Source: Actinomycetes bacterium
GTDB lineage: Bacteria > Actinomycetota > Acidimicrobiia > IMCC26256 > VFJJ01
Assembly: GCA_031362415.1 (NCBI GenBank)
Contig: JANLSK010000006.1
Coordinates: 21,868-85,867, forward strand
Direction: 5' to 3'
Length of the DNA stretch: 64,000 nucleotides
Shown: one piece after another, positions 10,180 through 24,608 of the stretch
Position numbering within the stretch: the stretch's first letter is position 1
Layout: the number at the start of each line of letters is the position of its first letter
Program-made: the position numbers and the translations under genes
The notes under the pieces: generated by a model
Told to the model about the DNA's origin: nothing
What the model saw: the letters and a program-made list of their open reading frames with translations, nothing else
The model's database searches: none

Positions 10180-10337
10180 CACAGCACGTTTCCCACGAAC
10201 TCGCCACCCACTGAGCTGCGGCCCCGAGCACCTTCGGAGCGGGCGCGATCCGTGGGCGGCGTGGTGCTCCGGTGGGTGGCTCATTGGAGACGCCGTCGAT
10301 ACGCTGGCCCGGTCCTGTCGCTCACACCGGGGGAACG

Positions 10338-10760: not shown

Positions 10761-11134
10761 AGGCTCGGCGCATCCATCACGTGTCGGTGAACGTCAACGG
10801 CGTCGATGTCGACGAGATGGTCGCGTTCTATCGAGACGTGCTGGGCCTCCACGACCTGGCTCGGCCCGAGATCCCCGGTGTTCCCGGGCATTGGCACGCG
10901 GTGGGCGATGTGGAGCTCCATCTCGTAGGCGCTCCCACACGAGGGACCCACGTCGACTCGCACGCTCACCACGTCTGCGTGACGGTCGACGACATCGACG
11001 CCGCGGTCGGCGAGCTCGTCGACCGGGGCATCGAGCACGTGAGAGGGGTTCAAGGTTCGGGAACCGTGCAGATCTGGTTCACCGACCCGGCGGGGAACAC
11101 GATCGAGTTGCAGCAGGAGACCCATCCCACATGA
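10757..11134 (+). CDS. VOC family protein
   Basis: 125 aa. Contains IHHVSVNVNGVDVDEMVAFYRDVLGL...HVCVTVDDIDAAV..L...G. It has a GTGA overlap with the previous VOC gene. Confidence 0.85.
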   Translation: MKARRIHHVSVNVNGVDVDEMVAFYRDVLGLHDLARPEIPGVPGHWHAVGDVELHLVGAPTRGTHVDSHAHHVCVTVDDIDAAVGELVDRGIEHVRGVQGSGTVQIWFTDPAGNTIELQQETHPT

Positions 11135-11166
11135 CGTTCGCTGGGATGGTCAGGGATAGTGGCGGG

Positions 11167-11202
11167 GGTGGTGGTGGTGGTGGTGGTGGTGGTGGTGGTG
11201 GT
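11167..11202. repeat. (GGT)12 trinucleotide microsatellite, intergenic
   Basis: Twelve perfect ggt units, counted by hand. It lies between the stop at 11134 and the ATG at 11296. Confidence 0.95.
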
Positions 11203-11295
11203 GAGGCGCCCGATTTCGAGCAGTGTTCAGTTGGACACGGAATGTGACGTCGTTGTGAACATCGTTCGGCGCACTTCGAGCGGAGCCACACGCCG

Positions 11296-12399
11296 ATGAC
11301 GTTCACGCCGTACGCGCACCGACCGGTCCGGGCCGCGATCGTGGGCCTGGGTCGTATCTACGACCTCAACGTGCGGGGCTACGTCGGCAACCCCGACGTG
11401 GAGGTCGTGGCTCTCGTCGACCCGAGCGAGGAGCGACGAGCGCAGCGCCAGGTCGACTGGCCGGGCTCGGCCACATTCTCCTCGGCCGCCGAGCTCGCCG
11501 CGAGTGGCATCGAGGTTGACGCGGTCGAGGCTCTGCTGCCGATCCCCTTGCACGTCGCGGGCGTTGTCGAGCTGCTCGGCCATGGCTGGCACGTGAACCT
11601 GCAGAAGCCGATGTGCAACGACCTCGCCAGTGCCGAGCGGATGCTCGAGGCAGCTCGCCGCAATGACCGCGTCTTACGGGTGATGGAGAACTACCTGTTC
11701 TACGAGCCGCTGCGGAAGCTCAAGGCTGTGGTCGAGTCGGGCGAGATCGGTGCAGTGAGCGGTTACCACATGAAGATGGTGGGCAGCGGCCGCGGCGGGT
11801 GGGACGTCCCGATGAGCAGCTTCGACTGGCAGCTCCAGCAGATGCGCCAAGGGCGCGGGATCCTCGTCTTCGACGACGGCTGGCACAAGCTCGCCACTGC
11901 GCTCTGGTTGTTCGGTCCCGTCAAGGAAGTGCGGGCCTGGATCGGCGCCACCGAGGTTGCGCCGACCATCAGCATCGACGCTCCCACCACCATTTCCTGG
12001 GAGCACGACAACGGCGTGCGCGGAGTGTGGGACATCACGCTGGCGCCCGAGCTGTACCTGCGGTCCGACTACTACACCAACGACGAGCGCTGGGAGGTGA
12101 CCGGCCGCAAGGGGTTCGCCCGGGTCAACCGCTGCACGGGTCGCGGCGTGCAACAACCCAGCCTGGAGGTGTACGCCGACGGCGAGATGCGCGGCTTCCA
12201 TGCGCTCGACGACGACTGGGCGAGCAGCTTCCGCGACTCGGGGCGGCACTGGCTTCGCTGGCTCCGAACCGGCGACGGCCCCCTCCTGTGGAGCGGCGAG
12301 GAGGCGGTCGACGTGCTCCGCTTCGCCCTGGCCGCATACGCAAGCAGCGAGCAGGGCGGCCTCGGCATCGACCCGTCCACCGTGGCGTACCCGGCGTAA
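11296..12399 (+). CDS. Gfo/Idh/MocA family oxidoreductase
   Basis: 367 aa. Contains VRAAIVGLGRIYD Rossmann start and EKP-like LQKPM motif. Confidence 0.85.
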   Translation: MTFTPYAHRPVRAAIVGLGRIYDLNVRGYVGNPDVEVVALVDPSEERRAQRQVDWPGSATFSSAAELAASGIEVDAVEALLPIPLHVAGVVELLGHGWHVNLQKPMCNDLASAERMLEAARRNDRVLRVMENYLFYEPLRKLKAVVESGEIGAVSGYHMKMVGSGRGGWDVPMSSFDWQLQQMRQGRGILVFDDGWHKLATALWLFGPVKEVRAWIGATEVAPTISIDAPTTISWEHDNGVRGVWDITLAPELYLRSDYYTNDERWEVTGRKGFARVNRCTGRGVQQPSLEVYADGEMRGFHALDDDWASSFRDSGRHWLRWLRTGDGPLLWSGEEAVDVLRFALAAYASSEQGGLGIDPSTVAYPA

Positions 12400-12452
12400 C
12401 CCAGCCTTGCGCCGACGATCGCAGGCTCAGGCCGCTCGGCCGTAGCGTAGGG

Positions 12453-14102
12453 CTACTCGCTCTCTCCGGCGTAGGTGCCGAAGGACCAAAGGTTGCCTTC
12501 GGGATCGCGGATGGTGAAGACGAGGCCATCGGGGTCGTACTCAGGGGCCTCGGGGGCGGCGACGACCACAACCCCGGCGGCGGTGCAGCGCTCGTACACC
12601 GCCAGCGGGTCGGCGGTGATCACGTAGAGGCTCTCGGTACCGGTCGGACGCTCGGAGAACGGGTTGCCGGCCCGGTTGGCTGTCGCTGCTTGGACCACGC
12701 CCCCTTCGGGCCAGCGCAGTTGGCTGTGCTCGATGATCTCCGGGTCGGAGCCGGGCACGATGAGATCGGTCTCGAAGCCCAGCACCTCGACCATGAAGCG
12801 GATCCCGGCTCCGGCGTCGGCAAAATTGAGCGCGGCCCAGATCCCCCCTCGAGCCCGGCGATCGACGGGACGGGCCCTGCGGGTCACCACCCCCACGCCC
12901 GCAGCCACGCCCACGCCCTTGTCTCCGGCACCGTTGCCATCCGCCAACGTGAGCGGGTGGCCCATGCGCGCGAAGGCTTCCGATATCGAGCCGCCGAAGA
13001 ACGAAGCCTGCACGTTGGACGGGACGTCGGCGAGCAACGACTCGTAGTAGGTGACAGGGTCGGGGTTTCCCTCGTTGTGGGCGTAGTCGCTCGAGAAAAC
13101 GACGGACTCGGGCAGCATCTCGAGCAACCGCAAGGGATTCTGGTCGGGCGTCGGCAACGGGGTTATCCGTACGTTCCGGCGCACGAACTCGGTCGGCGAC
13201 AATGACCACGGGTAGTCGCCGAAGTACACCCGCGGATTCACGGAACGGCGGGCATTGCGCTGTTCCATGTGCTCGACGGTTCCCCCGAACCAGTGGATGC
13301 CGCACTCGGCGATCAGCACGGTCAGCTCAGGATGGCGCTCGAACACGCCGCCGAAGACCATCCCGTTCAGGAACACCTGGATCTGCTGGTGTCCCTGGCA
13401 CACGCCGAGTTGGCGCAGCAGGGTGATGTCGCCTTCGACGTTGGCCCAGCCGTCGGCGAACATGGCCGGGTTGGCGCCCACGTGCAGGATGGCCAGCATC
13501 CCGAGATCGACCGCAGCCGACCAGATCTTGTCGTAGCCCGAGTGGAAATGCGGGATGCCGTTGACGGGCACCGCACTGATGAGGAACGACCGGCTTCCCA
13601 AGGCCCGCATACGGGTCATCTCGGCGACGGCCCAGTCGAGATCCTCGAAGGTGAGCGCCGTCGTGGGCCAGAGCCGATCGGTGTAGCCCTGATGGCACTC
13701 ACCCATGTAGGTGTTACCAGCAGCGATGAGGTCACGGGACGCGACCCGATCATCGAGGAACCGGGTGGAGGTGAGGCCGCGCAGGGAGATGATGTTCTGC
13801 GCGTCGATGCCCCGCGCGTCCAGCCAGGCCAATCGTTTGGCCGGATCGGCCAGACCGCTCTGCTCGGCACCCTCGTAAGCGAACCCCTCGACACGCTCGA
13901 ACCCGGCGATGGCTGCCGCGCCCGGAGGGAGGAGATCAGCCAGCGCAGGCCACTGCTGACGAGGAAGGGTCGTCAGCAGATCGCCGGCCACGAAGCGCAT
14001 CGTGACCTCGCCAACGTCGTAGGGCGGGAGTCCCGCTCGCTGCCAGGCCTCGGCGATCACGTCTTCCGGTGGCTCACCGTGCGAGTCGACGTCGATGATC
14101 AT
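12453..14102 (-). CDS. amidohydrolase-2 (ACMSD-like metal hydrolase) fused in frame to a C-terminal VOC/glyoxalase domain
   Basis: MIIDVDSHGEPP... and ...VVFSSDYAHNEG are amidohydrolase-2 hallmarks. After a Gly/Arg-rich linker comes GIWAALNFADAGAGIRFMVEVLGFE...HSQLRWPEGGVVQ...FTIRDPEGNLWSFGTY, a complete VOC module. Confidence 0.8.
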   Translation of the reverse strand: MIIDVDSHGEPPEDVIAEAWQRAGLPPYDVGEVTMRFVAGDLLTTLPRQQWPALADLLPPGAAAIAGFERVEGFAYEGAEQSGLADPAKRLAWLDARGIDAQNIISLRGLTSTRFLDDRVASRDLIAAGNTYMGECHQGYTDRLWPTTALTFEDLDWAVAEMTRMRALGSRSFLISAVPVNGIPHFHSGYDKIWSAAVDLGMLAILHVGANPAMFADGWANVEGDITLLRQLGVCQGHQQIQVFLNGMVFGGVFERHPELTVLIAECGIHWFGGTVEHMEQRNARRSVNPRVYFGDYPWSLSPTEFVRRNVRITPLPTPDQNPLRLLEMLPESVVFSSDYAHNEGNPDPVTYYESLLADVPSNVQASFFGGSISEAFARMGHPLTLADGNGAGDKGVGVAAGVGVVTRRARPVDRRARGGIWAALNFADAGAGIRFMVEVLGFETDLIVPGSDPEIIEHSQLRWPEGGVVQAATANRAGNPFSERPTGTESLYVITADPLAVYERCTAAGVVVVAAPEAPEYDPDGLVFTIRDPEGNLWSFGTYAGESE

Positions 14103-14132
14103 GCTGGCTCCTCGTGGGTTGACGCTCAGCGA

Positions 14133-14870
14133 TCAGTTTCGCACGGCCGCCGCAGCGGCCTCGGCGATGAACGTGTCGAAGAACCGCTGCTGCACGGGGT
14201 CGGTGGCTGCGGTGTCTTCGGGATGCCATTGCACGGCGACGATCCAGGCATCGCTCTCGTGCTCGAGCGCCTCGACGACCCCGTCGTCGGCCCGGGCCGT
14301 GACGACCAGCCCGTCACCAACCCGATCGACGGCCTGATGGTGCCACGACAGGCACATCGGCCGATCGGTCCCCAACGCCTTGTACACGCGTGAACCCGCC
14401 TCCACGGTCACCTCGTGCAGCACCCCGCGACGGTGCTCGATGGTGCCGGCGACATCGGGAACGTGCTGCACCAGCGTGCCGCCCAGCGCGACGTTGAGCA
14501 CCTGATGACCCCGGCATATGGCCAGGGTCGGCGTCCCGGTGGCGATCGCGGCACGAGCCAGCGCCAGCTCGAAGGCGTCGGAGTCGGCGCTGGTGCCGTA
14601 CACCTCGGCGTGCGGGTCCTGGCCGTATCGGGCCGGGTCGACGTCGCCGCCGCCGATCAGCACCAGACCGTCGAAGCGCTCCAGCCTCTCGGCCGCAGCG
14701 TCGTCGGTGAGCGGGATGGGGAGCTGCACCGCCTCGAGACCGCCGGCCCTTTGGATGGCGTCGATGTAGGCCCGGGAGCACGCCATCACGTTCTCCCGGT
14801 AGCCCTCGATCTGGGCCTTGGGGACGGGCCGCGATGTCACGGCGATCAGCGGACCACGATCACGAGCCAT
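14133..14870 (-). CDS. gamma-glutamyl-gamma-aminobutyrate hydrolase family protein (class I glutamine amidotransferase, peptidase C26)
   Basis: 245 aa. Contains LVLIGGGDVDP, nucleophile elbow ICRGHQVLNVALGGTL, and HHQAV...WHPE. Confidence 0.85.
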   Translation of the reverse strand: MARDRGPLIAVTSRPVPKAQIEGYRENVMACSRAYIDAIQRAGGLEAVQLPIPLTDDAAAERLERFDGLVLIGGGDVDPARYGQDPHAEVYGTSADSDAFELALARAAIATGTPTLAICRGHQVLNVALGGTLVQHVPDVAGTIEHRRGVLHEVTVEAGSRVYKALGTDRPMCLSWHHQAVDRVGDGLVVTARADDGVVEALEHESDAWIVAVQWHPEDTAATDPVQQRFFDTFIAEAAAAAVRN

Positions 14871-15041
14871 GCACCCACCTGCGGTCGAAGGACGCCATCA
14901 GCGAGACAGCCCAACGCTACCCCGACTGCGTTGGCTTACGACCGGAGCGCCGGCCTCGGACCCGACGGGCGACGAGACCGGCGCAGACACCGGCCTCGTC
15001 GCGCCGCGGAGCCTGCGCCCCGGCCATGACCTCGGTGAGAG

Positions 15042-16148
15042 CTATCCGACGGTGAAGGCCTGCGTCATCCCGTGGGCGAGGTGGGGTGTTCCGTCGGCGT
15101 TGGGGATGTAGCAGAACATCATGTACTCACCAGGGACGAGGTCGACGGTCAGTACCTCGTCGTCGCCAGGAAGGGCCACATACGAGCCGAAGAACGCGGC
15201 GACGGCGTCCTCGTCCTCGCTGCCGAACGCCTGCTCGGCGGTGAAGCCCTCGGCGGCCTGCAGGATCACCATGACGTGGGACAGCTCACCGTCGTTGGTC
15301 ATGGTGAACGTGGTCGGCCCCGCTGCCGGCGGGTCGAAGGCGAAGGCGAACTCCGTCGCTGACACCGCAACCTGGGCCGCCTCGGGGTCGGGCTCGGTGA
15401 TGGCCGGGTCCTGGAAGTCGCCCGGGTCCTGGGGGATGCCGCAGTGCTCGGCGTTGAAGGTATTGATGACCACGATGCGCTCGTAGGACTCTCGGACAAG
15501 GCCGAGACCAGGGTCCCCGGCAGCGATGCCCTCACGGAACGCGGCGACCACGATATCGACGTCGCCGCTGATCTCGTCGGGCGCGTTTACTTCGAGGGCG
15601 CCGAGCAGCTCCTCGGTCGGGACCGGTTCGTCTTCGATCTGCGCGGCGACGGTGCACCAGTCGGCGAACTCGGCGTCGATGTCACCCGATGCGATCTCGT
15701 CGGCCTCGTCGCCGGCCACCTCGGGCCCGCACGTCTCGATCTCGAAGGATGTGATGATCTCGAGCGCCGGCGCCACCTCGGGGTCGGCGAAGACGCTCTG
15801 TGGGTTACCGGAGTCGACGGCAGCAATGAACGCCGGCACCACGATCGCCAACTGGTCCTGGATGTCGTCGGGGGCCACCTCCTGGTAGGCGGTGAGTTGG
15901 TCGACGGTGGGGAAGTCTCCTGCGTTGAGCTCGGTGGCCAGCCTGCAGTACTCGTCGAGCTCGCCCGCACCTCCGCCCTCGGGGGCCGCCGTCCCGATCG
16001 TCGTCGCGGCCGTCGTCGTGATCGCGGCCGGGGCCACCGTGGTCGCGATCGCGGCCTGGTCGGCGGCTTCGTCATCGTCGCCGCAACCTGCGGCCGCGAG
16101 GGTGAGTGCGAGCACCGTGGCCGTGAAGTACCTGTGTCGTGTGTTCAT
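15042..16148 (-). CDS. lipoprotein with two Cys-pair repeat domains and a C-terminal cupredoxin-like domain
   Basis: ATG 16148 has SD gaaggag upstream. MNTRHRYFTATVLALTLAAAGCGDDD is a signal peptide plus lipobox-like Cys. Two ~95-aa repeats are each bounded by (Y/W)C ... (T/H)CG. The C-terminus FTMTNDGELSHVMV...MFCYIPNADGTPHLAHGM has an H/C/H/M pattern like type-1 copper sites. Confidence 0.75.
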   Translation of the reverse strand: MNTRHRYFTATVLALTLAAAGCGDDDEAADQAAIATTVAPAAITTTAATTIGTAAPEGGGAGELDEYCRLATELNAGDFPTVDQLTAYQEVAPDDIQDQLAIVVPAFIAAVDSGNPQSVFADPEVAPALEIITSFEIETCGPEVAGDEADEIASGDIDAEFADWCTVAAQIEDEPVPTEELLGALEVNAPDEISGDVDIVVAAFREGIAAGDPGLGLVRESYERIVVINTFNAEHCGIPQDPGDFQDPAITEPDPEAAQVAVSATEFAFAFDPPAAGPTTFTMTNDGELSHVMVILQAAEGFTAEQAFGSEDEDAVAAFFGSYVALPGDDEVLTVDLVPGEYMMFCYIPNADGTPHLAHGMTQAFTVG

Positions 16149-16488
16149 CGTCTCTCCTTCGTCAGTCGCATGACGACCCTCGTGCTCGGGAACTCGATGC
16201 ACAGCAGCTCGAAGTGAGTCGCTGCGACCAACGCGCACCCTGCCCGTGAAGCTCCCCGGAAACCGGGCCTGAACGACGGGGCTGCGTGCCTGTCCACATC
16301 GTCCGCTCCCCGCGCCCCGGAAGCGATCGCGTGGCAGAGGTATCTCGCTGTCCGAGCAGTAAGGCTCAGGTAACCGGATGGGCAGGCTCGTCCTCGGGCG
16401 CAGCAGTGGCGCAGCGCACCCGTCCCCCATCCGAGCACTTGTCACCAGCGACATCACAGACCGTGTCCTCGTGAACACTTCTCGGGGG

Positions 16489-19400
16489 TCAGCGGGAACA
16501 GGTCGACCGGGTGGCTTGACCGGGAAGGTATCGATCCCATTCGCCGGGAGTGAGCTCGCGTCCGGCGACCGCACAGGCTGCGGCTCGCCAATCGGCTGGA
16601 TCGAGAGACCAGATCATCGGGGCGTCGCTGCCCACATACAGCGACGCACCGTCGGGGCTGAACGCCGGGACGAAGGGTATCTCCGGACGGTCGGGCTCAG
16701 GAATGGCGGCGACGGTGACCGGGAGCGCGCCTCCCACCAGGCTGCCACCGATGGGTGCACCGGTAGCGGTGTCCCAGAGCTGGGTCGTGGCGAACTCGGT
16801 CGTCGAGGCGAGAAGTGATCCGTCGACGTTGAACGCCAGGCCCCGCACGGGATAGAGACTCTGCTCGCCGGCTGGCGCCGCCGGTTCGAGCGTGTCCGCA
16901 TCCCAGAGCTGCACGGTGCCGCCGGAAGTTCCGGTGGCGATCCGTCGACCGTCAGGCCCCCACGCGACAGCGAAGAACGGGACGTCGACGCTCTCCAGAT
17001 AACCCGCTTCGAGCGTGCGACCTTCGACGTCGATCAGACGCACGACATTGTTGTCCACAACGGCGGCGAGGCGATCGCCGTCGGGTGAGAAGGCCAGGCC
17101 TATCGCCGAGCCGCCGACGGTCGTGACGGCGTCTCCAACGGGTTCGAGCGTGACCGCGTCGAGGAAGATGATGTCATGAGTCAGTCGGTCGCTCGCTTGA
17201 TCGGCTCCCACCGCCACCAAGGCGCCCGACGGGTCCCAGGCGACGGCTTCCACGGGATGATCGAAGCGAACCGGTCCGCCCACGGTCGTGCCGTCAGCGA
17301 CGTCGAGCACGGCCAGCCGGCCGTCCGCGCCACCGAGGGCGATCCGGGTGCCGGTCGCATCGAGGGCCGCGGTCCAGATCGGCTCCCCGGTCTCGACGTG
17401 CCAGCGCGTCGTATCGGTACCGACCTCTCGCGCCGTCACCGATCCGTCGAAGGAAGCGGTCAGGATGGTTTCGCCGTCAGGCAGTGCCATCACGGCCACG
17501 ACCGCGTCGCTGTGGCCGGTGATCGGACGACCGAACGAACGTGAACCGTCGAGGCTCCAGACCGACCCGGTGCGGTCGCTCCCGGCGATGGCGAGGTGCG
17601 ACCCGTCGGGGCTGAACGCGACGTCGTTGACCTCACCGGCCAGCCCGGTCAACGGAGGAGCGGCGAGGCGGCCGGTGGCGCTGGCGAAGAGTCGGGTGGA
17701 GCCGAGGAACCCGCCGACGGCGATCAGGGATCCATCGGGCGAGAAGGCGATCGCCGAGGCGACGTCGCCGTCGAGGTCGAAACGCCGAATCGGCATGACC
17801 CGAGCGCTCCCGATGGCTTCCCGTGACAGTTGGGCGAGGACGACCTCCCCCAACTCGTTGCCGATGGCGAGACGCCCGCCGCCCGGGTCGTAGGCGATGG
17901 CCGTCGGGAGCGCCTCGGCGTGCAGCAACGCGCTCACGTCGACATCCATGGCAGTGGTCGTACCCGGAGCCGCATCCGGGCCGGGCACCGGACCTGGCGC
18001 CCGGGCCACGGCGCGTATCGTCAGCATCCCGTTGCTGGACACGACGACGAGGGAGGTGCCGGCAACGCCGATGGCCCAGGGTTGGTCGACAACGCGCTCG
18101 ACGGCTTCGGCGACGCCCCGGTCGATATCGACCATCTGGATCGCCGCCACCCAGTCGGGCTCCTCCGAGAACCGGGTCGCGGAGATGGGATATCCCGCAA
18201 CGGCGACATGGGTGTCGTCGATGACGATGACACGCTCAGGCAGAACACCGAGCGGCAGGCTGGCGCGCTGCTGTCGTGTCGTCACGTCCCACACCTGCAG
18301 AGTTGCCGCGGCTGATGCGAACTCGTTCTCGGTGCGCTGCTCGGCCACACCGACCACGACGACGGTGCTGCCGCTGGGCGTGAAGGCGGCGTCGAAGTCG
18401 ATCTGGAATTCCTCCCCGGTGGCCAACGGTTCGCCCGTCGGACGATAGGTAGCCGTATCCCACGTGAACGTGCCCGTCGAGTCGGATGTGGGTGCGACCA
18501 GCTTCGTGGCGTCGGGCGACCAGGCCAGCGATTCGAAGCCCGACTCCACGCCGTGGAGCTTCGCCACGAGCATCGGCTGGGCGGCCAGCGCATGCAGCAG
18601 GGCGCTGCGCGTATCGACGGTGTCGCGGCGGCGGTTCGCCTCGACAGCCAGCAACAGAGCCAGATCGGGTTGCGTGGCCGCCGCCGTCCGGGCCTCGGCA
18701 CCCAGGCGGGCGATGTCGGCGTTGGCGCTGGCGTTGTCGGCCCGGTCACGTTGGTCAGACGTCCGACCGAGCTGCACCACGGCTACGACGGCCGCCACCA
18801 TGGCGACGACCAGCGCGAACGCGACACTTACCAGTAAACGCCGCAGGCGCCGGTTGACGACCCCGGCTCGGCGGGCCTCGTCGGCGTGCGTTGCGACCGA
18901 CGCCTCGATGAACAACGTCTCGGTCACCGTCAACGAAACACGGTCGGTCAGCTCGACCGCTCCCGCGAGGCGCCCGCCACGGTAGAGCTCGGCGGGGTCG
19001 TGGCTGGCCGTGGTCCAGGCGCCGGCCGCGGCCGTGAGATGGCGGTGGCGGCGGAGATCGTCGCGTTGATCGGCGATCCAATCAGCCAGCCGGGGCCATT
19101 CCCGCAGCAACGACTCGTGCGCCGGTGCAACGGTGTGACCGTCGACGGTCACGAGGCGTGCGGCGGCGAGACGGTCGACGAGGCGATCGATCGACTCGTG
19201 CTCGCCCAGATCGCGTAGCTCGTCGAGGTCGACCCGGCGCCGGCTGTCGGCCGTGCCTTCGCCCGGCTGCACCATGCGCATGAGCACAGCGCGAACCGTC
19301 TGGCGGTCGGTGTCTCCGAGGCTCCCGAACACGGCTTCGGCCGACGTCGCGATGGCGCCGTGCACTCCGCCGGCGGCGCGATATCCGGCGACGGTCAGGG

Positions 19401-21372
19401 TCCGACCGTCGCGTCGCAACCAGGTTTCACGCATGGCCTGAGCGACGAGCGGCAACGCCCCGGGCTCGTCGCCGGCGTCGGCCAGGACCAGCTCGGCCAG
19501 CCCGGCCTCGAGCCGGAGACCGCGTCGCTCGGCGGGAACCTCGATGGCTGCTCGCAGTTGATCGGGACGCATCGGGGCGAGCAGCAGATGACGACTCGCC
19601 ACGGCGTCGGCGAAGTGGGGGAAACGGGAGAGCTCGCCCAGCGCGTCGCCCCGTAGGCCCACCACGACGCCGGCGGGGTGAGCGCACAGCCGCTCGACGA
19701 AGACCCGTCGAGCATCCTTGTCGTCGCACAAGGTGAACAGCTCCTCGAGCTGATCGACGATGACCACACCGTCCCCGAGGCGGTCCAACGCCTGGAGGGG
19801 ATGGGCGCCCGGGGTGCACACGGTGGCCCCGGGGAGGTGCGGCAACAGGCCAGCGCGCAGCAGCGAGCTCTTGCCGCTGCCCGACGCCCCCAGCACGGCC
19901 ACGACCCGTCCGGGCCCGACCAACTGGCGCAGCATGACGACGGCGTCATCCCGGCCGACGTAGACATCGGCATCTTCCGGCTCGAAGCTGGCCAGCCCGG
20001 GGTAGGGCGCTACCGCGGGATCGGGCGGAACGTCGAGCCCCGCGGCCGACACCGCGACCACGTGATCGGGCGGGCCGACACCACCCAGATGATGGGCGCC
20101 GAGGGCGACCAGGCCGATGCCATCGAGGTGCTCGGCGGCGACGAGGCCCGCCGTCGTCGCCGAGAGCAGCACCTGGCCGGCTCCGGCGAGGTCTCGAATC
20201 TCCCCGGCCCGGTTCACCGTGGTCCCGTGCCCGCCTCGCTCTCCGAGCCCGGGGTGGCCTCCAATGACCGAGAGCTCACCGGTGTGCACACCCGAGCACA
20301 CTTCGATGACCGGATCGCATGTGCCGACGAGGTCGCGGTTGATCGCAACTGCGGCCCGCACCGCCTGCGCGGCGCGGGTGAACACCGAGACCGTGGTCTC
20401 GCCGTGGGTCGCAGCGCCGATACCCCGGCCACCGTGGTGCTCGACGATGCGATCGACGATCAGGTCGTGGCGGGCCAACGCCGCCGGCATCGCCAACCCG
20501 TGCGTCTGCCACAACGTCGCGAAGCGGGAGATGCGCGTCGTGAGAATCGTCACCGTGCCCGTGGGCAACGTGTCGGGCTCACCGGCGCGCAGCATCTCCA
20601 CGAACTCGCCGACGGTCGGGGGACGGCGGCCGGGGTCGATGGCCAAGCCCCTCCGGATCGCCACTTCGAGGTGCTCGGCCCGCGCCGGCTCGATGCCGCT
20701 CCACCGGGGGAGCACCCCCGTCGGGGGCCCACCGGTGAGCAATGCGAACACCGTGGCGGCCAGCCCGTAGATGTCGGCTGCCGGCCCCGGCTCGTCACCC
20801 ACCATCAACTCCGGTGCCCGATAGCCGGGCGTACCACCTCGCTGCACGAGTCCCGGCAGCGACGACACGCCGAGGTCGACGCACACGATCCGTCCTTGCC
20901 GATCGAGCACGAGGTTGGCCGGCTTCACGTCGCAATGGACGATCGGAGGATCGTGGCGATGGAGGTGCGTCAGGGCCTCGGCGGCCTGGGCGGCCCAGCG
21001 CAGCACCGTGGACGGGGGCAGCCCGGGCGTGCCGTCGGTGGCCAACACGCGCCCGAGGTCGATGCCGTCGACCCAGTCGAGGACCACGACATGCTGGTCG
21101 TGCTCGAAGAAGTCGTCGCGCACGACCGGCAGCCCGGGGTGCGGCGCCAGCTCGAGCAACGTACGAACCTCACCCAGGACCCGCTCGGCTTCGAGCGGGT
21201 TGGCGGGGATCCGGCGGATCTTCAGGGCCACGAACCGGTCGTGGCGGGTATCGAGCGCCTTGACCACGGTCCCCTGACCGCCCCGACCCACCGTCTCGAC
21301 CACGTCGTAGCGCTGGCGTATTCGTTGCGAGCCGCCCGTTCGTTGCGAGCCGCCAGCTGGGGCCGACGGCAT
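16489..21372 (-). CDS. multidomain signalling protein (1627 aa): Ser/Thr protein kinase, degenerate class III cyclase-homology domain, STAND P-loop NTPase, TM helix, WD40 beta-propeller repeats
   Basis: Start at ATG 21372..21370 overlaps the stop of the upstream FHA-LuxR gene (ATGA). Motifs seen are GRGGQGTV..VALK, HCDVKPANLVL, DLG, YRAPE (kinase). Then GTVTILTTRISRF..GVHTGE..GTTVNRA (cyclase-like) and GASGSGKSSLLRAGL plus VVIVDQLEELF (Walker A/B). RRLLVSVAFALVVAMVAAVVAVV is the TM helix. Many AFSPDG-type WD40 blades follow. Confidence 0.9.
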   Translation of the reverse strand: MPSAPAGGSQRTGGSQRIRQRYDVVETVGRGGQGTVVKALDTRHDRFVALKIRRIPANPLEAERVLGEVRTLLELAPHPGLPVVRDDFFEHDQHVVVLDWVDGIDLGRVLATDGTPGLPPSTVLRWAAQAAEALTHLHRHDPPIVHCDVKPANLVLDRQGRIVCVDLGVSSLPGLVQRGGTPGYRAPELMVGDEPGPAADIYGLAATVFALLTGGPPTGVLPRWSGIEPARAEHLEVAIRRGLAIDPGRRPPTVGEFVEMLRAGEPDTLPTGTVTILTTRISRFATLWQTHGLAMPAALARHDLIVDRIVEHHGGRGIGAATHGETTVSVFTRAAQAVRAAVAINRDLVGTCDPVIEVCSGVHTGELSVIGGHPGLGERGGHGTTVNRAGEIRDLAGAGQVLLSATTAGLVAAEHLDGIGLVALGAHHLGGVGPPDHVVAVSAAGLDVPPDPAVAPYPGLASFEPEDADVYVGRDDAVVMLRQLVGPGRVVAVLGASGSGKSSLLRAGLLPHLPGATVCTPGAHPLQALDRLGDGVVIVDQLEELFTLCDDKDARRVFVERLCAHPAGVVVGLRGDALGELSRFPHFADAVASRHLLLAPMRPDQLRAAIEVPAERRGLRLEAGLAELVLADAGDEPGALPLVAQAMRETWLRRDGRTLTVAGYRAAGGVHGAIATSAEAVFGSLGDTDRQTVRAVLMRMVQPGEGTADSRRRVDLDELRDLGEHESIDRLVDRLAAARLVTVDGHTVAPAHESLLREWPRLADWIADQRDDLRRHRHLTAAAGAWTTASHDPAELYRGGRLAGAVELTDRVSLTVTETLFIEASVATHADEARRAGVVNRRLRRLLVSVAFALVVAMVAAVVAVVQLGRTSDQRDRADNASANADIARLGAEARTAAATQPDLALLLAVEANRRRDTVDTRSALLHALAAQPMLVAKLHGVESGFESLAWSPDATKLVAPTSDSTGTFTWDTATYRPTGEPLATGEEFQIDFDAAFTPSGSTVVVVGVAEQRTENEFASAAATLQVWDVTTRQQRASLPLGVLPERVIVIDDTHVAVAGYPISATRFSEEPDWVAAIQMVDIDRGVAEAVERVVDQPWAIGVAGTSLVVVSSNGMLTIRAVARAPGPVPGPDAAPGTTTAMDVDVSALLHAEALPTAIAYDPGGGRLAIGNELGEVVLAQLSREAIGSARVMPIRRFDLDGDVASAIAFSPDGSLIAVGGFLGSTRLFASATGRLAAPPLTGLAGEVNDVAFSPDGSHLAIAGSDRTGSVWSLDGSRSFGRPITGHSDAVVAVMALPDGETILTASFDGSVTAREVGTDTTRWHVETGEPIWTAALDATGTRIALGGADGRLAVLDVADGTTVGGPVRFDHPVEAVAWDPSGALVAVGADQASDRLTHDIIFLDAVTLEPVGDAVTTVGGSAIGLAFSPDGDRLAAVVDNNVVRLIDVEGRTLEAGYLESVDVPFFAVAWGPDGRRIATGTSGGTVQLWDADTLEPAAPAGEQSLYPVRGLAFNVDGSLLASTTEFATTQLWDTATGAPIGGSLVGGALPVTVAAIPEPDRPEIPFVPAFSPDGASLYVGSDAPMIWSLDPADWRAAACAVAGRELTPGEWDRYLPGQATRSTCSR
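16492..18660 (-). other. WD40/beta-propeller repeat region (aa ~905-1627), predicted extracytoplasmic
   Basis: Recurrent blades include SLAWSPDATKLV, AIAFSPDGSLIAVGG, DVAFSPDGSHLAIAG, GLAFSPDGDRLAAV, AVAWGPDGRRIATG...VQLWD and GLAFNVDGSLLAS...TQLWD. The tail is ACAVAGRELTPGEWDRYLP. Confidence 0.8.
18769..18837 (-). other. single predicted transmembrane helix separating the NTPase from the WD40 region
   Basis: RRLRRLLVSVAFALVVAMVAAVVAVVQLGR. A positive cluster lies on the N-terminal side and about 22 hydrophobic residues follow. Confidence 0.7.
19003..20010 (-). other. STAND-type P-loop NTPase plus winged-helix region (aa ~455-790)
   Basis: PYPGLASFEPEDADVYVGRD precedes Walker A VLGASGSGKSSLLRAGLLP. 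Walker B is VVIVDQLEELF. Downstream are LVTVDG...AHESLLREWPRL..W. Confidence 0.75.
20053..20562 (-). other. cyclase-homology domain with substituted metal-binding residues (aa ~271-440)
   Basis: GTVTILTTRISRFATLW sits where class III cyclases have vTvlFtDIvgFT, so Asp is replaced by Arg. HGETTVSVF sits where GD..ma.F is expected, so Asp is replaced by Glu. GVHTGE and G.TVNRAGEI are retained. Confidence 0.6.
20587..21309 (-). other. Hanks-type Ser/Thr kinase domain of the 1627-aa protein (aa ~22-262)
   Basis: Gly loop GRGGQGTV and VALKI lysine. The catalytic loop is HCDVKPAN (HRD replaced by HCD). DLG replaces DFG. GTPGYRAPE is present. Confidence 0.85.
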
Positions 21373-21971
21373 CAGCTGGCGCCGAGATCGGTGATGCTCA
21401 CCGCACCGGTGGCGAGTGCAGCGTTGGCGAGGCGGGAACGGCGGCGTTCCCCTCCGACCACCCTGAACTTGTCGTACAACCGTCCCAGGTGCTGCTTCAC
21501 CGCCGCGTCGCTCACGATGAGCGCAGCCGCGATCTGGCGCACCGAGGCCGGTTCGGTGAACGGGTCGCCCGACAGCAGCGGCTGGCACAGAGCGATCAGC
21601 ACGTCACGCTCGCGAGCCGTCAGCACCGGCACCTCGTCGGTCACCAGTGTCTCGGAGCCGCCCATGCTGCCCACGCCGCGCAGCACCAGACGAGCGCGTC
21701 CGAGGCGTATCTCGTCCGACGCTCGCACGACTCGGCGTACCTGCACCCGCTCGCCGTTCACGAACGTGCCGTTGCGCGACGCCAGGTCCTGCACGAACCA
21801 CGAACCGCCCAGCCACTCCAGCAGGGCGTGGACCCGCGAGACCGAGGCGTCGACGACCACGATGTCAGCCGCCGATGAGCTGCCGATGGTCGCCCGATCA
21901 GCGGGGATCGTCAGCAACTCGCGGCCTGCCCCGGTCCACAGCTCGAGATGTCCTTCCACGCGCTCCATCAT
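21372..21971 (-). CDS. FHA domain plus LuxR/GerE-type HTH transcriptional regulator
   Basis: MMERVEGHLELW... starts from ATG 21971. The FHA core is ATIGSSSAADIVVVDASVSRVHALLEW..WFVQDLASRNGTFVNGERV. The C-terminal LTARERDVLIALC...SVRQIAAALIVSDAAVKQHLGRLYDKF is a GerE HTH. Confidence 0.85.
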   Translation of the reverse strand: MMERVEGHLELWTGAGRELLTIPADRATIGSSSAADIVVVDASVSRVHALLEWLGGSWFVQDLASRNGTFVNGERVQVRRVVRASDEIRLGRARLVLRGVGSMGGSETLVTDEVPVLTARERDVLIALCQPLLSGDPFTEPASVRQIAAALIVSDAAVKQHLGRLYDKFRVVGGERRRSRLANAALATGAVSITDLGAS

Positions 21972-21988
21972 CGCGCCGCCCGACACAT

Positions 21989-22881
21989 TCACACCCCGCA
22001 GATCTGCTCGTCGTAGGCCAGGACCCGGGCGTGATGGTCGCGAATGGCAGGATCGGTCTGCTGGACGATGGCTCGATCCTCGGGCGTGCCCTCGAGGATG
22101 AGCCGTCGGAGGTCGTAGTCGAAGGCGATCAGGACCTCGGGGCCGCGCGTTCGCAGCCACTCGGTCAACGCCTCGACATCTGCGGCGATCACCGCGGGTG
22201 CGTTGGCGGCCTGGGCGTCGAGGACCATCGTGTATCCAGGGCTCTCGATGAACGCTCTGAGCAGTGCGGGTTCGAAGGCCGAATTCACGACCGCGGCGTA
22301 CCCGTCATCGAACGCGGCCACGGTCTCGCAGTAGTCAGCCGCTGTCGGGTCGTCCGCGAAGCTCACCTCGGCGGCTCCTCCCGGACCGGTACCGCAGACC
22401 TGGCTCTCGTAGGCCAGGATGGCAGCCTGGGCGGCCTGCACGTCGGGGGGTGGCTCCAGCGCCTGTTCCGCCGGGGTGCCCTCGGATCCGATGCGCTCCA
22501 CGTCGAAGTCGTACGTCTCGAGCACCGGTGTCAGCATCGTCATGATGGTCTCGTTGTTGAGCACCCAATGCTCCCTGATGCTCGCAGGCGACTGCGCCAA
22601 TGCGGTATCGATGAACTCGAGGTACTCGGCCCAATAGGCCCTAACGCGGCCGGATTGGCCTGATCGTCACCGTCACCGTCGAGCTCGTGCACCGTCCAGA
22701 CGCGAGCGGTGTCGCAGTACGCGCTGTCGGGATCGTCGAGCAACGCGCCGGCAGCATCGTCGTCGCCCCCTCCACACGACGATATGAGCAGCGCCACCGC
22801 CAAACCCGTCACCGCCCGCTTGGTTGCTCCATGCCAGTGTTGTCTTACGAGATAGGTACGCCCGAGGCGTCGAATGGTCAT
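21989..22881 (-). pseudogene. paralogous two-repeat Cys-pair lipoprotein, interrupted by one frameshift (or an assembly indel)
   Basis: ORF 22540..22881 supplies the signal peptide and lipobox (LAVALLISSCGGGDDD) and the start of repeat 1 (SAYCDTARVW...). ORF 21989..22600, in another frame, supplies the end of repeat 1 (...AYESQVCG) and all of repeat 2 (ADYCETVAAF...AYDEQICGV). The frames can be joined near 22641..22652. Confidence 0.6.
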
Positions 22882-23225
22882 GGCGACATCATCCGTGAAG
22901 CGCGACGGCCCAAGCGATGGCGCGACCGCGCTATCTCCCTGTCCCCGGGATAAGGCTCATGTGACGAGAGGGACAGGGCACACCGAGCCGGACGCTCGAA
23001 CCCAGGACTGCCTGACACAGGCGCACGGAGCGACATCCGGTCGTGAAGACCGCTTCGCGCGGGCGGGGTGGAGTTCCGCCACCCAGTGACGACCCGGGAG
23101 GTGATCGTCGCCGAGCTGGGTCACTCGATCGCCAGATCGAGGTCGCCAAACCCGGAGCGGCCGGCATCCCAGTCCCGTCCTGTTCCGCCACGGTCTCGAG
23201 GACCTCGCGGGAAGGCCCATCTGGC

Positions 23226-23366
23226 CTCGTCGCTACCGCCGATGAGCACCAGCGCGTCGAAGTGCTCCAGCCGTTCGACGGCCGCGTCGACGGTGAGCGG
23301 CACCGGAGGCTGCACGGCCTCCACGCCGCCGGCGCGCCGAATGGCCTCCAGGGCTGGCCCCGCAAC
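23226..23366 (-). pseudogene. internal fragment of a second C26 glutamine-amidotransferase gene (paralog of 14133..14870)
   Basis: Minus-strand translation after TGA 23369..23367 is VAGPALEAIRRAGGVEAVQPPVPLTVDAAVERLEHFDALVLIGGSDE. The intact paralog reads AYIDAIQRAGGLEAVQLPIPLTDDAAAERLERFDGLVLIGGGDVD. DNA 23231..23360 aligns by eye with 14650..14780. No catalytic Cys/His region follows. Confidence 0.6.
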
Positions 23367-23405
23367 TCACGACGGCAGTTCACGGCCGCAGCTCGGGGCC
23401 GCCGT

Positions 23406-24608
23406 TCAGGGACGGGGCTCGCGGGGAAGTCCCAACGAGCGTTCTCCGATCACGTTCTTCATGATCTCGGTGGTGCCACCAGCGATGGTCATTGAACGGC
23501 TCGCGATGAGTCGGTTCCCGGCCGCCATGTCGTCGGTGCTGAGACCGGCGATTGCTTCGAGGCCGACCGTTGACGCTCCGAGCTCGGCCAGTCGCTGGGC
23601 CAGGATCGACCAGGCCAGCTTGATGACCGACGACACCGCTCCCGGGGCTGCGGCGCCCGTCATCTCGGCCAGGGCTCGCGAGCCCATCCACTGCAGGATG
23701 CGCGACCCGCTGTAGAGGCGGCTCGCCTCCTGGCGGTGCACGCCCACGAGCCCGCCCGGCCGGCCAGGAGCCCCTCCCGGGCCGCCCGAGCCTCCGCGAC
23801 TGCCACCGGTGCCACGGTCACCGAGCACGAGTCGCTCGACGTCCTCGACGAGGTTCCCGGCGATCGAGATCACGCCGGCACGCTCGAAACCCAGCGTGGC
23901 CATGGTGACACGCCAGCCGTCGTTCACGGCGCCGAGCACCGAGTCGGCCGGCACGTGCACGTCGGTGAAGTGCATCTCGGCGAAATCGCTGTCGCCGCTG
24001 ATCTGGGTGATGGGACGGCGCTCGATGCCCGGGAGATCGAGGGGCACCATGAGCGCCGAGATGCCCTTGTGGGCTGGAGCCACGAGGTCGGTGCGCACCA
24101 GCAGCATGCAGTGCGTCGCCCACATGCCGATCGACGTCCAGACCTTGGAACCATTGACGATCCAGGTGTCGCCGTCGAGCTCGGCCCGGCAGCGCAGGCC
24201 AGCGAGATCGCTGCCCGCGTCGGGCTCGCTGAAGCCCTGGCACCACACTTCCTCGGCCGTCAGGATCCGTCCCAGGCTGAGACGCTGCTCGGGCGTGCCG
24301 TGCACGGCGATGGTCGGGCCCACGTTCTTCACGCCGAACACCGCGACCTGGCGAGGCGCGCCGGCCCGGTGGAACTCGGCGTCGCAGGCCACCTGCTCGG
24401 CCACATCGAGGCCGCGGCCGCCGATGTCGGCGGGCCAGGCCGGCGCGGTCCAGCCGTGGCGGCCGAGCGTACGTTGGAAGTCGATCCAGGCTTCCCAGCT
24501 CCCGTGGGCGCCGAAGCGGGCCCGGTGCTCGGGAACGATGACCGCCAGGAGCTCACGCAGCTCCTCGTGCGGTCGGGGGGACAGGTGCGCGGGGACGAGT
24601 TGGCTCAT
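23406..24608 (-). CDS. acyl-CoA dehydrogenase family protein
   Basis: MSQLVPAHL... starts from ATG 24608, which overlaps the upstream stop (ATGA). Contains WCQGFSEPDAGSDLAGL, NGSKVWTS and TIAGGTTEIMKNVIGERSLGLP. Confidence 0.85.
   Translation of the reverse strand: MSQLVPAHLSPRPHEELRELLAVIVPEHRARFGAHGSWEAWIDFQRTLGRHGWTAPAWPADIGGRGLDVAEQVACDAEFHRAGAPRQVAVFGVKNVGPTIAVHGTPEQRLSLGRILTAEEVWCQGFSEPDAGSDLAGLRCRAELDGDTWIVNGSKVWTSIGMWATHCMLLVRTDLVAPAHKGISALMVPLDLPGIERRPITQISGDSDFAEMHFTDVHVPADSVLGAVNDGWRVTMATLGFERAGVISIAGNLVEDVERLVLGDRGTGGSRGGSGGPGGAPGRPGGLVGVHRQEASRLYSGSRILQWMGSRALAEMTGAAAPGAVSSVIKLAWSILAQRLAELGASTVGLEAIAGLSTDDMAAGNRLIASRSMTIAGGTTEIMKNVIGERSLGLPREPRP

Follow-up and report, generated by a model that had tools for sequence, protein, structure and literature searches.

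Two adjoining genes in the window (the whole 64,000-nucleotide stretch of DNA analysed here) probably, at a rough probability of 60%, form a transmembrane module in which a STAND receptor kinase controls transcription through an FHA-LuxR protein. All features described below lie on the reverse strand. The receptor gene (16489..21372, 1627 aa plus stop) encodes a Hanks-type kinase, a class III cyclase-homology domain, an nSTAND1 NTPase, a single predicted transmembrane (TM) helix and a tandem double WD40 beta-propeller; the regulator gene (21372..21971, 199 aa) encodes an FHA domain and a LuxR-type helix-turn-helix (HTH). The architecture is conserved among relatives, the two genes are paired and their products co-vary, and the kinase and NTPase motifs are intact. 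A literature search turned up only the naming of nSTAND1, in agreement with the original prediction that neither the domain combination nor its pairing with such a regulator had been characterized.

The coordinates and reading frames predicted for both genes proved correct when the open reading frames and translations were re-read. The genes overlap as proposed, but by a single common base and not by a four-base ATGA: the junction reads ...AGC TGA TGC CG..., with TGATG at 21374..21370, and base 21372 belongs both to the regulator stop codon (TGA, 21374..21372) and to the receptor ATG. This ATG is the sole plausible receptor start: V24, the next start codon in frame, already falls within kinase strand beta-1. 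A lipoprotein gene upstream (21989..22881; signal peptide with LISSC lipobox, two Cys...CG modules; three-frame translation and tblastn) stops 17 nt ahead of the regulator ATG and is broken by a 1-nt frameshift near 22640. Intact homologues were found at loci L024, L007, L018, L010, L002 and L005, and lipoprotein homologues adjoined the regulator/receptor pair in 9 loci (tblastn), making the protein a possible accessory component. No other gene consistently adjoined the pair in the related loci compared.

The FHA domain of the regulator (21678..21950, aa 8-98) scored 71.3 bits in Pfam against a cut-off of 20.7 (E = 9.3e-20), and the AF2 model of the protein (pLDDT 84.8) showed an FHA beta-sandwich joined by a disordered linker to a helical HTH domain. 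Foldseek matched the sandwich to the FHA domains of GarA, OdhI, EmbR and CT664 with probability 1.00; the top structures were 6i2p, 7rj3, 4qcj and 6hc1 (GarA/OdhI and DgcB group), and the EmbR structures matched were 2ff4 and 2fez. The LuxR/GerE-type HTH domain (21381..21623, aa 117-197) carries the insertion CQPLLSGDPFTEPA after its first helix. Its GerE/LuxR match was marginal and partial, yet above the cut-off (24.1 versus 23.5 bits, E = 2.8e-5), and many relatives already carried PF00196 in precomputed annotation. The modelled HTH helices span residues 119-197, and the LTxRE motif is present as L117-T118-x-R120-E121, with T, R and E invariant and L in 55/65 regulators. Profiles, model and structural matches thus agree with the predicted placement of an FHA domain on a LuxR HTH in the partner protein.

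Alignment of 65 regulators showed G30, S45, H48, N67 and G68 of the FHA domain to be invariant, and T69 was kept in 64. The five-residue FHA signature (G, R, S, H, N) was incomplete, the Arg of the GR motif being absent from all 65 (Lys in 46, Thr in 12, Ser in 6, Asn in 1; Ser31 in the window's regulator). As this is the canonical phosphothreonine-contacting Arg, phospho-dependent binding may be weak or work differently; R46, directly after S45 in the window's domain, might compensate for it. Within the otherwise variable linker between FHA and HTH, Thr108 (codon at 21648..21650) was invariant in 65/65 regulators, and pLDDT fell below 50 at residues 102-111, so modelled as disordered. We take Thr108 as the candidate phospho-acceptor.

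The kinase domain of the receptor (20578..21309, aa 22-265) matched Pfam Pkinase over aa 22-218 (99.4 bits, cut-off 31.7, E = 2.9e-28). The motifs GRGGQG, K51, E68, D148, N153, D166 and APE are all intact in the window and conserved among 115 full-length relatives, and the K/E/HxD/N/DxG set was intact in 115/115 full-length relatives. The HCD (H146-C147-D148) and DLG (D166-L167-G168) variants noted in the original prediction were both present; relatives have HGD at the former position in 113 of 115 cases. By these motifs the kinase family is of the non-RD type, without the Arg of HRD, a loss that is not expected to affect catalysis. The DFG+1 residue is Leu throughout the family and Val in the window. 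In eukaryotic kinases, Leu at this position is reported to favour Ser over Thr (PMC3898841). This eukaryotic rule counts against Thr108 as a target and may not apply here.

The class III nucleotide cyclase homology domain (20053..20565, aa ~270-440) was detected with Guanylate_cyc at 24.2 bits (cut-off 21.9, E = 2.8e-5) when aa 264-470 were scanned alone. Its tetrad positions are occupied by R280 (D to R), E325 (D to E), N387 and E391 (R to E), and a 7-residue insertion precedes the Asn motif. Judged by these residues the domain is catalytically degenerate, and predicted to be dead only in the window's clade, where each of the five closest relatives has a different degenerate pattern. The description as a pseudo-cyclase thus fits the window but not the family: the complete D/D/N/R tetrad survives in 77 of 115 relatives.

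More than 115 full-length receptor relatives (36-67% identity) were found in Acidimicrobiia and Thermoleophilia, with at least 212 species-level genomes encoding one, and receptor architecture and length were stable over these two actinobacterial classes. Of 79 species-level loci (those kept each from a different genome), 65 had a regulator homologue beside the receptor gene, and 14 a full-length receptor without an adjoining regulator; L061 has two receptors in tandem. Three more regulators, chosen independently on long contigs, were again each followed by a receptor gene. The predicted co-occurrence of the two genes is thereby borne out, and the pairing far exceeds chance. Pairwise identities of regulator and receptor were correlated (r = 0.89, Mantel 0/2000), a co-variation that a shared species phylogeny would also give. 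The pairs occurred in three orientations: 18 co-directional (spacing -4 to +7 nt), 37 divergent, and 9 with the regulator downstream of the receptor, of which 8 were convergent; L050 is probably convergent and could not be classified cleanly. Since adjacency survives these changes of orientation, the tie appears to be functional and not merely transcriptional. Translational coupling, which the original prediction had proposed, holds in the window's clade but not as a general trait, being confined to that one clade while other loci are divergent or have the regulator downstream.

In the divergent loci just ~25-110 nt separate the two start codons, as is typical where a regulator gene faces the gene that it controls. 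These loci would suit a reverse arrangement in which the FHA-LuxR protein controls the receptor gene and itself, its FHA domain answers another kinase or a non-phosphorylated ligand, and the receptor kinase and cyclase have different targets; an FHA domain without the canonical Arg fits that arrangement, as does the intact cyclase of most relatives, which would supply a second, diffusible output. We find it doubtful, given the 9 loci with a downstream regulator, where adjacency is kept without a common promoter region, and given the translationally coupled upstream regulator of the window's clade. Moreover, characterised neighbours encoding a Hanks kinase and an FHA protein, such as PknH-EmbR and PknB/PknG-GarA, are kinase-substrate pairs. 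Reverse regulation is compatible with the kinase-to-regulator module, as autoregulation and phosphorylation could operate together.

C-terminal to the cyclase homology lies the nSTAND1 module (18994..20010, aa ~455-793), which matched PF20703 with 347.8 bits (cut-off 27.1, E = 1.5e-103); the rival NTPase profile AAA_16 reached only 19.2 bits. Walker A (G495ASGSGKS) and Walker B (V536VIVDQLEE) stand as originally read, the GASGSGKS and hhhhDQxEE motifs were kept in 115 relatives apart from rare conservative substitutions, and the domain order, kinase/cyclase to NTPase to WD40, is that of a STAND protein. The sole hydrophobic segment of its kind in the receptor, 23 residues long (18772..18840, aa 845-867; Kyte-Doolittle 2.96) and preceded by NRRLRRLL, matches the single TM helix that had been predicted, and was likewise the sole such segment in 107/115 relatives. 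The AF2 model of aa 800-1627 (pLDDT 89, pTM 0.85) showed a long helix across this segment, a tandem double propeller and two short helices. The propeller (16603..18570, ~13-14 blades; Pfam WD40 families, AF2) matched tandem WD40 proteins in Foldseek. WD40 blades do follow the helix as proposed, but they cover about 655 aa and not ~720, because the modelled propeller spans aa ~935-1590. The tail after it (16492..16602; invariant columns W..LDP..W..AC.VAGR.LT..EW..YLP....TC) contains C1600 and C1625, the only two Cys after the TM helix; both are invariant and form a candidate disulfide.

Two features of the sequences point indirectly to the outside location of the WD40 region that had been proposed. 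The 15 residues before the helix contain on average 6.2 K+R versus 3.1 after it, with more on the N-terminal side in 108/115 relatives, and the number of Cys was even in 109/115 relatives after the helix versus 47/115 before. Similarly, among 112 proteins that share the nSTAND1-TM-WD40 chassis but carry an unrelated N-terminus, the charge bias was found in 103, and an even Cys count in 103 after the helix and 52 before. Even Cys counts are expected of exported, disulfide-bonded actinobacterial domains. The propeller is probably extracytoplasmic, with the receptor a single-pass N-in/C-out protein, and is predicted to be the sensor. Were the segment instead not membrane-spanning, or a mere tether at the inner face, the WD40 part would be cytoplasmic and the receptor an ordinary STAND protein, soluble or peripheral, whose effector is a kinase; the sensor-NOD contacts required by the canonical STAND mechanism and the low AF2 confidence at the helix start (pLDDT 47-64 at model residues 41-60) would fit. 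This seems unlikely to us against the length, hydrophobicity and conservation of the segment, also found in 147/150 of the nearest chassis relatives, the positive-inside bias in both sets, and Cys counts that are even solely C-terminal of the helix, with about half even on the N-terminal side.

The chassis itself comprises about 12,500 protein clusters at 50% identity (E <= 1e-30). At least 81 of its 150 nearest members carried a fused DNA-binding domain (XRE HTH in 44, SARP in 26 and, in combinations, in 11 more), with kinase plus cyclase in 21, cyclase in 18 and kinase in 4; an AAA16-type ATPase was also recognised. No death-type effector, nuclease, protease or TIR domain was recognised, in a scan that used exemplars only for DNA-binding, cyclase, kinase and AAA16-type families and left 14 modules without assignment. 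Fusion to a DNA-binding domain is the usual state of this chassis, which favours transcription as the output and lowers the likelihood of a defence role.

In a defence role, the WD40 part would sense an invader and the STAND module would release the kinase to act as an effector, by toxicity or abortive infection, with FHA-LuxR as an accessory or immunity-type regulator. The definition of nSTAND1 came from predicted conflict systems, where S/T/Y kinase and FHA are listed as domains associated with it, and the members described by Kaur, Burroughs, Iyer and Aravind (2021) carry effector-associated domains, caspases, TIR and similar domains, and FGS/C-lectin sensors (PMC8195603). The window's clade shares the Pfam family with these NTPases of predicted conflict systems; unlike them it has a TM helix, WD40 sensors, DNA-binding, cyclase or kinase N-termini and no defence context. 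PADLOC gave matches to mad6 and PD-T4-6, but these were confined to the generic kinase domain (aa ~15-260), with none for the STAND module or the whole architecture. The 10 neighbouring genes, ordinary metabolic ones, gave no PADLOC match; as PADLOC-DB dates from 2023, this lack is no proof of absence. Divergence is much faster in the WD40 part than in the N-terminal half, flanking genes lack synteny even with the closest relative, and some genomes hold extra copies, such as the L061 tandem, all of which would suit a defence system. Architecture and length that are stable in two classes, in loci each from a different genome, would not, nor would N-termini that, where recognised, are DNA-binding, cyclase, kinase or AAA16-type ATPase modules. 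Characterised Avs-type STANDs sense phage proteins inside the cell, which a sensor outside the membrane could not reach. With no whole-protein or NTPase match, toxic effector or defence island found at the receptor locus, we consider a defence role quite unlikely.

Returning to the receptor-to-regulator module, we propose that the outside WD40 double propeller, held by the N-in/C-out helix, would bind an extracellular ligand or protein and thereby trigger NTP-dependent oligomerisation of the cytoplasmic nSTAND1 module. In canonical STAND proteins the NTPase is kept closed by sensor repeats folded back onto it. With a membrane separating the two, this model does not apply, so that activation would have to differ. 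Oligomerisation would gather the N-terminal non-RD kinase domains and switch them on, and in most relatives would also gather the dimer-dependent class III cyclase domains; the window's cyclase, predicted to be dead, is probably structural only. The kinase would then phosphorylate the co-encoded FHA-LuxR protein, most likely at Thr108, nine residues ahead of the HTH. An intra- or intermolecular contact between FHA and phosphothreonine could alter dimerisation or DNA binding of the HTH and, we infer, transcription of its target genes, the FHA domain taking the role of the receiver domain in NarL/FixJ-type response regulators.

The original prediction likened this logic to that of PknH-EmbR of Mycobacterium tuberculosis, in which the gene of an FHA transcription factor adjoins that of a membrane Ser/Thr kinase whose sensor is extracytoplasmic. 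The gene arrangement is indeed alike, but phosphotransfer, demonstrated for PknH-EmbR, is here a prediction, and the GR Arg missing from all 65 regulators is present in EmbR. EmbR also has a C-terminal FHA domain and a SARP (wHTH+BTAD) instead of a LuxR DNA-binding part, and PknH is without STAND NTPase, cyclase domain and WD40 propeller. GarA/OdhI and Bdellovibrio DgcB, the top structural matches, join an FHA domain to a flexible segment with a conserved Thr and are switched by phosphothreonine in that segment; by analogy they could be a model for pT108 acting intra- or intermolecularly. In contrast to the window's regulator, their phospho-site is N-terminal and not C-terminal to the FHA domain, the GR Arg is present, and what they control is not DNA binding: the output is enzyme inhibition or activation of GGDEF.

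AfsK-AfsR of Streptomyces likewise combines Hanks kinase, beta-propeller repeats, STAND NTPase and DNA-binding domain, joined by Ser/Thr phosphorylation with transcription as the end point. There, however, the STAND module belongs to the substrate, together with the DNA-binding domain, and in AfsR no TM helix separates NTPase from repeats; in the window the module shares the receptor with the kinase, and a small FHA-HTH protein is the putative substrate. Proteins of the Rv0386/Rv1358/Rv2488c and LAL/MalT types unite class III cyclase, STAND-type ATPase and LuxR HTH in one signalling unit, but in one chain and with an AAA_16/MalT ATPase, whereas the window has a separate HTH with kinase and FHA interposed, an nSTAND1 ATPase and a sensor beyond a membrane helix. 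The commonest chassis relatives (XRE-HTH/SARP-nSTAND1-TM-WD40) resemble ToxR/CadC-type proteins in having a cytoplasmic DNA-binding domain, one TM and an external sensor, although ToxR-like proteins have no NTPase switch; in the window the fused DNA-binding domain is replaced by a kinase and a separate regulator.

On a broader reading, which we hold tentatively, the pair represents a STAND ('NOD-like') class of transmembrane receptors, very large and unstudied, that has the propeller outside, the NTPase inside and an interchangeable cytoplasmic output: fused HTH, SARP, cyclase, or kinase with a separate FHA-LuxR protein. If so, STAND proteins would not be solely intracellular sensors, a major actinobacterial receptor family would combine NLR with receptor-kinase logic, and FHA-LuxR would be the Ser/Thr-kinase-driven counterpart of NarL-type response regulators. 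If the WD40 part is truly outside, the textbook picture of a cytoplasmic, self-shut STAND would need a second mechanism, and the ~12,500-cluster chassis would be a major receptor class without any characterised member.

Acidimicrobiia and Thermoleophilia are actinobacteria that abound in soil and water; very few of their members have been cultured, and to our knowledge their signal transduction is almost unexplored. One carrier, Solirubrobacter soli DSM 22325 (locus L055), is in culture, so the predictions are directly testable; in one clade the cyclase has decayed and kinase and NTPase are intact, a natural comparison by which the two outputs could be separated. One receptor with its dedicated transcription factor unites a Hanks kinase/FHA pair, a STAND NTPase switch and cyclic-nucleotide synthesis, which are usually studied apart, and the module looks like an uncharacterised route from an outside signal to gene expression.

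The regulator gene, which encodes a 199-aa FHA-LuxR protein, runs from 21971 to 21372 on the (-) strand and is followed on the same strand by the receptor gene (21372 to 16489, 1627 aa). At the junction, AGC TGA TGC CG, the TGA of the regulator and the ATG of the receptor have one base, 21372, in common, and the overlap is TGATG rather than the four-base ATGA originally described. The ATG at 21372 is the sole plausible receptor start, since the following in-frame candidate falls within kinase strand beta-1. An 18-nt tandem duplication lies at the 5' end of the receptor gene (21319..21354 (-), ggcggctcgcaacgaacg / ggcggctcgcaacgaata, giving GGSQRT-GGSQRI), in an N-terminal extension (aa 1-13) that is missing from the family consensus. 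The G+C content of the window is ~69-70% along its whole length. At this genome's 70% G+C a promoter and terminator scan of 15900..23500 was uninformative: no sigma-70-like promoter was found, and the one terminator-like site was within a coding region and not above the level of shuffled sequences.

The kinase and NTPase assignments of the original prediction were backed by Pfam matches to Pkinase (receptor aa 22-218, E 2.9e-28) and nSTAND1 (PF20703, E 1.5e-103). Many WD40/beta-propeller families matched aa ~1150-1540, and aa 264-470, scanned by itself, matched Guanylate_cyc (24.2 bits, cut-off 21.9). Neither protein has an NCBIfam equivalog, the matches being kinase and FHA similarities at domain level that score far under the cut-offs. 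An AlphaFold2 model of receptor aa 800-1627 (pLDDT 89, pTM 0.85) has, in order, a long helix across the hydrophobic segment, two short helices, a tandem double propeller of about 13-14 blades (aa ~935-1590) and two terminal helices, and in Foldseek searches it resembled tandem WD40 proteins such as 2ymu, Utp21 and Aip1.

The catalytic sites were analyzed in an alignment of 115 full-length relatives. Kinase residues K51, E68, D148, N153 and D166 and the APE motif are invariant. The HRD arginine position is occupied by Gly in almost all relatives and by Cys in the window, therefore this is a non-RD kinase family; the DLG in place of DFG is confined to the window. Conservation extends to Walker A (GASGSGKS) and Walker B (hhhhDQxEE), where substitutions are rare and spare the critical residues. 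The cyclase tetrad (two metal Asp, Asn, Arg) is R/E/N/E in the window and is degenerate in the five closest relatives, differently in each (NDNH, SGNA, DGLR, S-GH, E-VR), a pattern from which the cyclase is predicted to be a pseudo-enzyme under relaxed selection for catalysis in this Acidimicrobiaceae clade, to which the loss is limited. The pseudo-cyclase originally proposed is thus upheld for the window and not for the family, since the tetrad is intact in 77 of the 115 relatives. The purine-specifying position (alignment column aa 319; G319 in the window) holds Lys in 43 of the 115 sequences, Glu in 27 and other residues elsewhere, so that different family members may produce different cyclic nucleotides.

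A Kyte-Doolittle scan of the receptor detected a single hydrophobic segment, aa 845-867 (score 2.96), with nothing similar elsewhere; this helix is the sole hydrophobic segment in 107/115 relatives. Because the N-terminal 840 residues comprise ATP-using enzymes without a signal peptide, they must be cytoplasmic, and one spanning helix would then place the propellers outside. The residues flanking the helix agree with this orientation: the mean number of Lys+Arg in 15 residues is 6.2 before the helix and 3.1 after it, with the N-terminal side higher in 108/115 relatives. In Actinobacteria that form disulfides, even cysteine numbers confined to exported domains are a known signature. The cysteine count C-terminal to the helix is even in 109/115 relatives, and exactly two in 87, versus an even count N-terminal to it in only 47/115; the two in the window, C1600 and C1625, never vary and belong to the conserved C-terminal tail. 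The same bias was found in 112 proteins outside the receptor family that share its nSTAND1-TM-WD40 arrangement (hereafter the chassis, whose N-terminal modules vary): cysteines were even in number after the helix in 103/112 and before it in 52/112, with Lys+Arg means of 5.7 before and 3.2 after. Cytoplasmic propellers, against which these charge and cysteine statistics speak, are quite unlikely; an extracytoplasmic location of the WD40 propellers, as predicted from sequence, is well supported, if not proven.

The regulator contains an FHA domain (Pfam E 9.3e-20) and a marginal GerE/LuxR match (24.1 bits, cut-off 23.5). Its AF2 model (pLDDT 84.8) comprises an FHA sandwich (8-98) and a helical domain (119-197) joined by a linker modelled as disordered (pLDDT <50 at 102-111), and the closest structures by Foldseek were the FHA domains of CT664, GarA, OdhI, EmbR and DgcB. 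In 65 regulators the FHA signature residues G30, S45, H48, N67 and G68 are invariant and T69 is present in 64. The Arg that follows the glycine in canonical FHA domains contacts phosphate; this position is never Arg in the 65 regulators (K 46, T 12, S 6, N 1; Ser31 in the window) and, judged from the alignment, its loss genuinely sets these regulators apart from canonical FHA domains. All 65 regulators have Thr at position 108, as do a further 44 relatives taken from the database. This Thr108 sits in the otherwise variable, disordered linker, nine residues ahead of the LTxRE motif with which the HTH begins. In GarA/OdhI and DgcB, switching works through a conserved Thr in a flexible segment beside the FHA domain.

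Relatives of the receptor form >115 clusters in the protein database (1500-1620 aa, 99% query coverage, 36-67% identity), those with names being from Acidimicrobiales or Actinomycetota MAGs. With one genome taken per species, 212 genomes encode a relative; 79 loci were retained, from Acidimicrobiia and Thermoleophilia (Solirubrobacterales, Gaiellales), only one of them from a cultured source, Solirubrobacter soli DSM 22325. Of the 79 loci, 65 have a regulator homologue directly beside the receptor gene. Three layouts occur: the regulator lies upstream on the receptor's strand in 18 loci, is divergent in 37, and lies downstream in 9 (8 convergent and one, L050, probably convergent and not cleanly classified). 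In the same-strand clade, which includes the window, the stop-start spacing ranges from a 4 nt overlap to a 7 nt gap. Adjacency kept through inversion is strong evidence that receptor and regulator are functionally tied. Pairwise identities of the two proteins are also correlated (r = 0.89; 0/2000 permutations as high), and three independently picked regulators on long contigs were each followed by a receptor, fragmented by assembly frameshifts; the pairing seen originally in one genome therefore recurs in related ones. A full-length receptor stands without an adjoining regulator in the other 14 loci. One of these 14, from a Solirubrobacterales MAG (L061), carries two full-length receptor paralogues in tandem (5501..10219 and 10241..15004), and an FHA-LuxR gene was not found near them. 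In three long-read loci (L080, L081, L082; ENA ERZ25039591 / ERZ25039547) the receptor gene was called as 2-7 fragments and tblastn matches switch frame along it; indels shift the frame there, and gene calls from these assemblies under-report the family.

We asked whether the intergenic regions of the 37 divergent loci carry shared signals. The start codons of regulator and receptor are ~25-110 nt apart, a TAnnnT -10 box lies ~7 nt before the regulator start, and a purine-rich stretch precedes the receptor start. In S. soli, where the two genes are back to back with start codons ~25 nt apart, the regulator start reads TAGACT-N7-GTG (9955..9990 of its locus, L055, where the receptor orthologue spans 9989..14617). 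With a -10 box so near its start codon, the regulator of divergent loci is probably translated from a leaderless mRNA. No convincing palindrome that could serve as a conserved operator was seen in the 37 regions. The divergent layout suggests another role for the regulator, namely control of the receptor gene and nothing more; the downstream-regulator loci (8 convergent) and the coupled layouts weaken this reading, which we regard as unlikely as a full account, and such control is in any case compatible with signalling from receptor to regulator.

When every ORF up to 5 kb from the pair was clustered across the 79 loci, no conserved gene emerged besides the regulator, and none of the window's 14 flanking genes is kept beside the pair in any locus, including the closest relative, L001. 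A lipoprotein gene (22881..21989 (-); signal peptide ...AVALLISSCGGG, two Cys...CG modules) ends 17 nt ahead of the regulator. It is split in two frames near 22640, where one base is missing (NPAAL / RAYWAEYL versus NPAALRKYWNEY in homologues), either through an assembly indel or because it is a true pseudogene. LpqB is an accessory partner of MtrB. By analogy, because intact homologues flank the pair in 9 of the 79 loci (8-9 for the family in the ORF clustering), the upstream lipoprotein may be an accessory extracytoplasmic partner. The downstream lipoprotein gene (16148..15042 (-), lipobox LAAAGC) encodes a protein with no Pfam match; it has two Cys...CG modules, akin to the upstream ones, and its C-terminal part (FCYIPNADGTPHLAHGM) is cupredoxin-like. 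The ORF at 15042..16574 was rejected as an operon member, its true start being M143 (16148), 340 nt beyond the receptor stop; one weak homologue occurs near the pair, in a single locus (L003). Other neighbours encode a peptidase C26, an amidohydrolase/glyoxalase, an acyl-CoA dehydrogenase, two short-chain dehydrogenases, a PLP enzyme of Cys/Met metabolism, a CBS-domain PALP enzyme, a thiolase-like pair and several FAD oxidoreductases.

The wider chassis was examined with receptor aa 450-940 as query, a stretch that covers NTPase, helix and linker. Among 1.84 billion representatives, 12,550 clusters matched at E <= 1e-30, and the 150 best of these were sorted by N-terminal module with local profile searches, exemplars being confirmed in Pfam: XRE-type HTH (44), SARP (winged helix + BTAD; 26), kinase + cyclase (21), cyclase alone (18), unassigned (14), SARP combined with cyclase or AAA_16 (11), none (<60 aa; 7), kinase alone (4), cyclase + AAA16 (3) and AAA16 alone (2). 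A hydrophobic helix follows the NTPase in 147 of the 150. The recognised modules make the chassis outputs those of classical signal transduction, and direct DNA binding is predicted for more than half of the best 150. Scanning with exemplars for the listed families only, which left 14 proteins unassigned, recognised no caspase, TIR or nuclease module among them. These regulatory outputs speak against a defence or conflict role, a context in which nSTAND1 has been named (PMC8195603). Defence models match the kinase domain of the receptor only (PADLOC, run on receptor, regulator and 10 neighbours, returned generic kinase matches or nothing), and the neighbourhood is metabolic and blank in PADLOC, making such a role unlikely.

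From the observed architecture, conservation, intact motifs and gene linkage we infer the following scheme for the pair. External propellers would bind a ligand or protein, NTP-dependent assembly of the nSTAND1 modules would follow, and proximity would activate the kinase domains and, in most relatives, the dimer-dependent cyclase as well; the window's cyclase, predicted dead, is probably structural only. The kinase would then phosphorylate the regulator, most likely at T108, and contact between the FHA domain and pThr would alter how the LuxR HTH dimerises or binds DNA. The phospho-relay is kept conditional chiefly because the phosphate-contacting Arg of the FHA domain is absent. Canonical STAND autoinhibition requires direct contact between sensor and NTPase, and a sensor across the membrane is hard to reconcile with that mode of control; ligand-induced clustering would be the simplest way for a far-side sensor to act on the NTPase.

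Several known systems resemble the pair in part. PknH-EmbR, to which it was originally likened, combines a kinase with an FHA transcription factor; AfsK-AfsR has the same parts otherwise distributed; Rv0386/LAL regulators carry cyclase, ATPase and LuxR on one chain; GarA/OdhI/DgcB have an FHA domain that responds to a phosphothreonine in a flexible segment of the protein itself, as proposed for the regulator; and ToxR-like regulators have the topology predicted for the receptor. The full combination is absent from all of these. Literature searches on the architecture and on any FHA-LuxR regulator gave nothing specific and no description of either, consistent with the original prediction that the pair is uncharacterised. 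The pair is interesting yet assembled from familiar parts: by comparison with the chassis proteins, it looks as if a one-chain design had been split, with DNA binding placed on a separate FHA-LuxR protein to which the kinase would provide the link.
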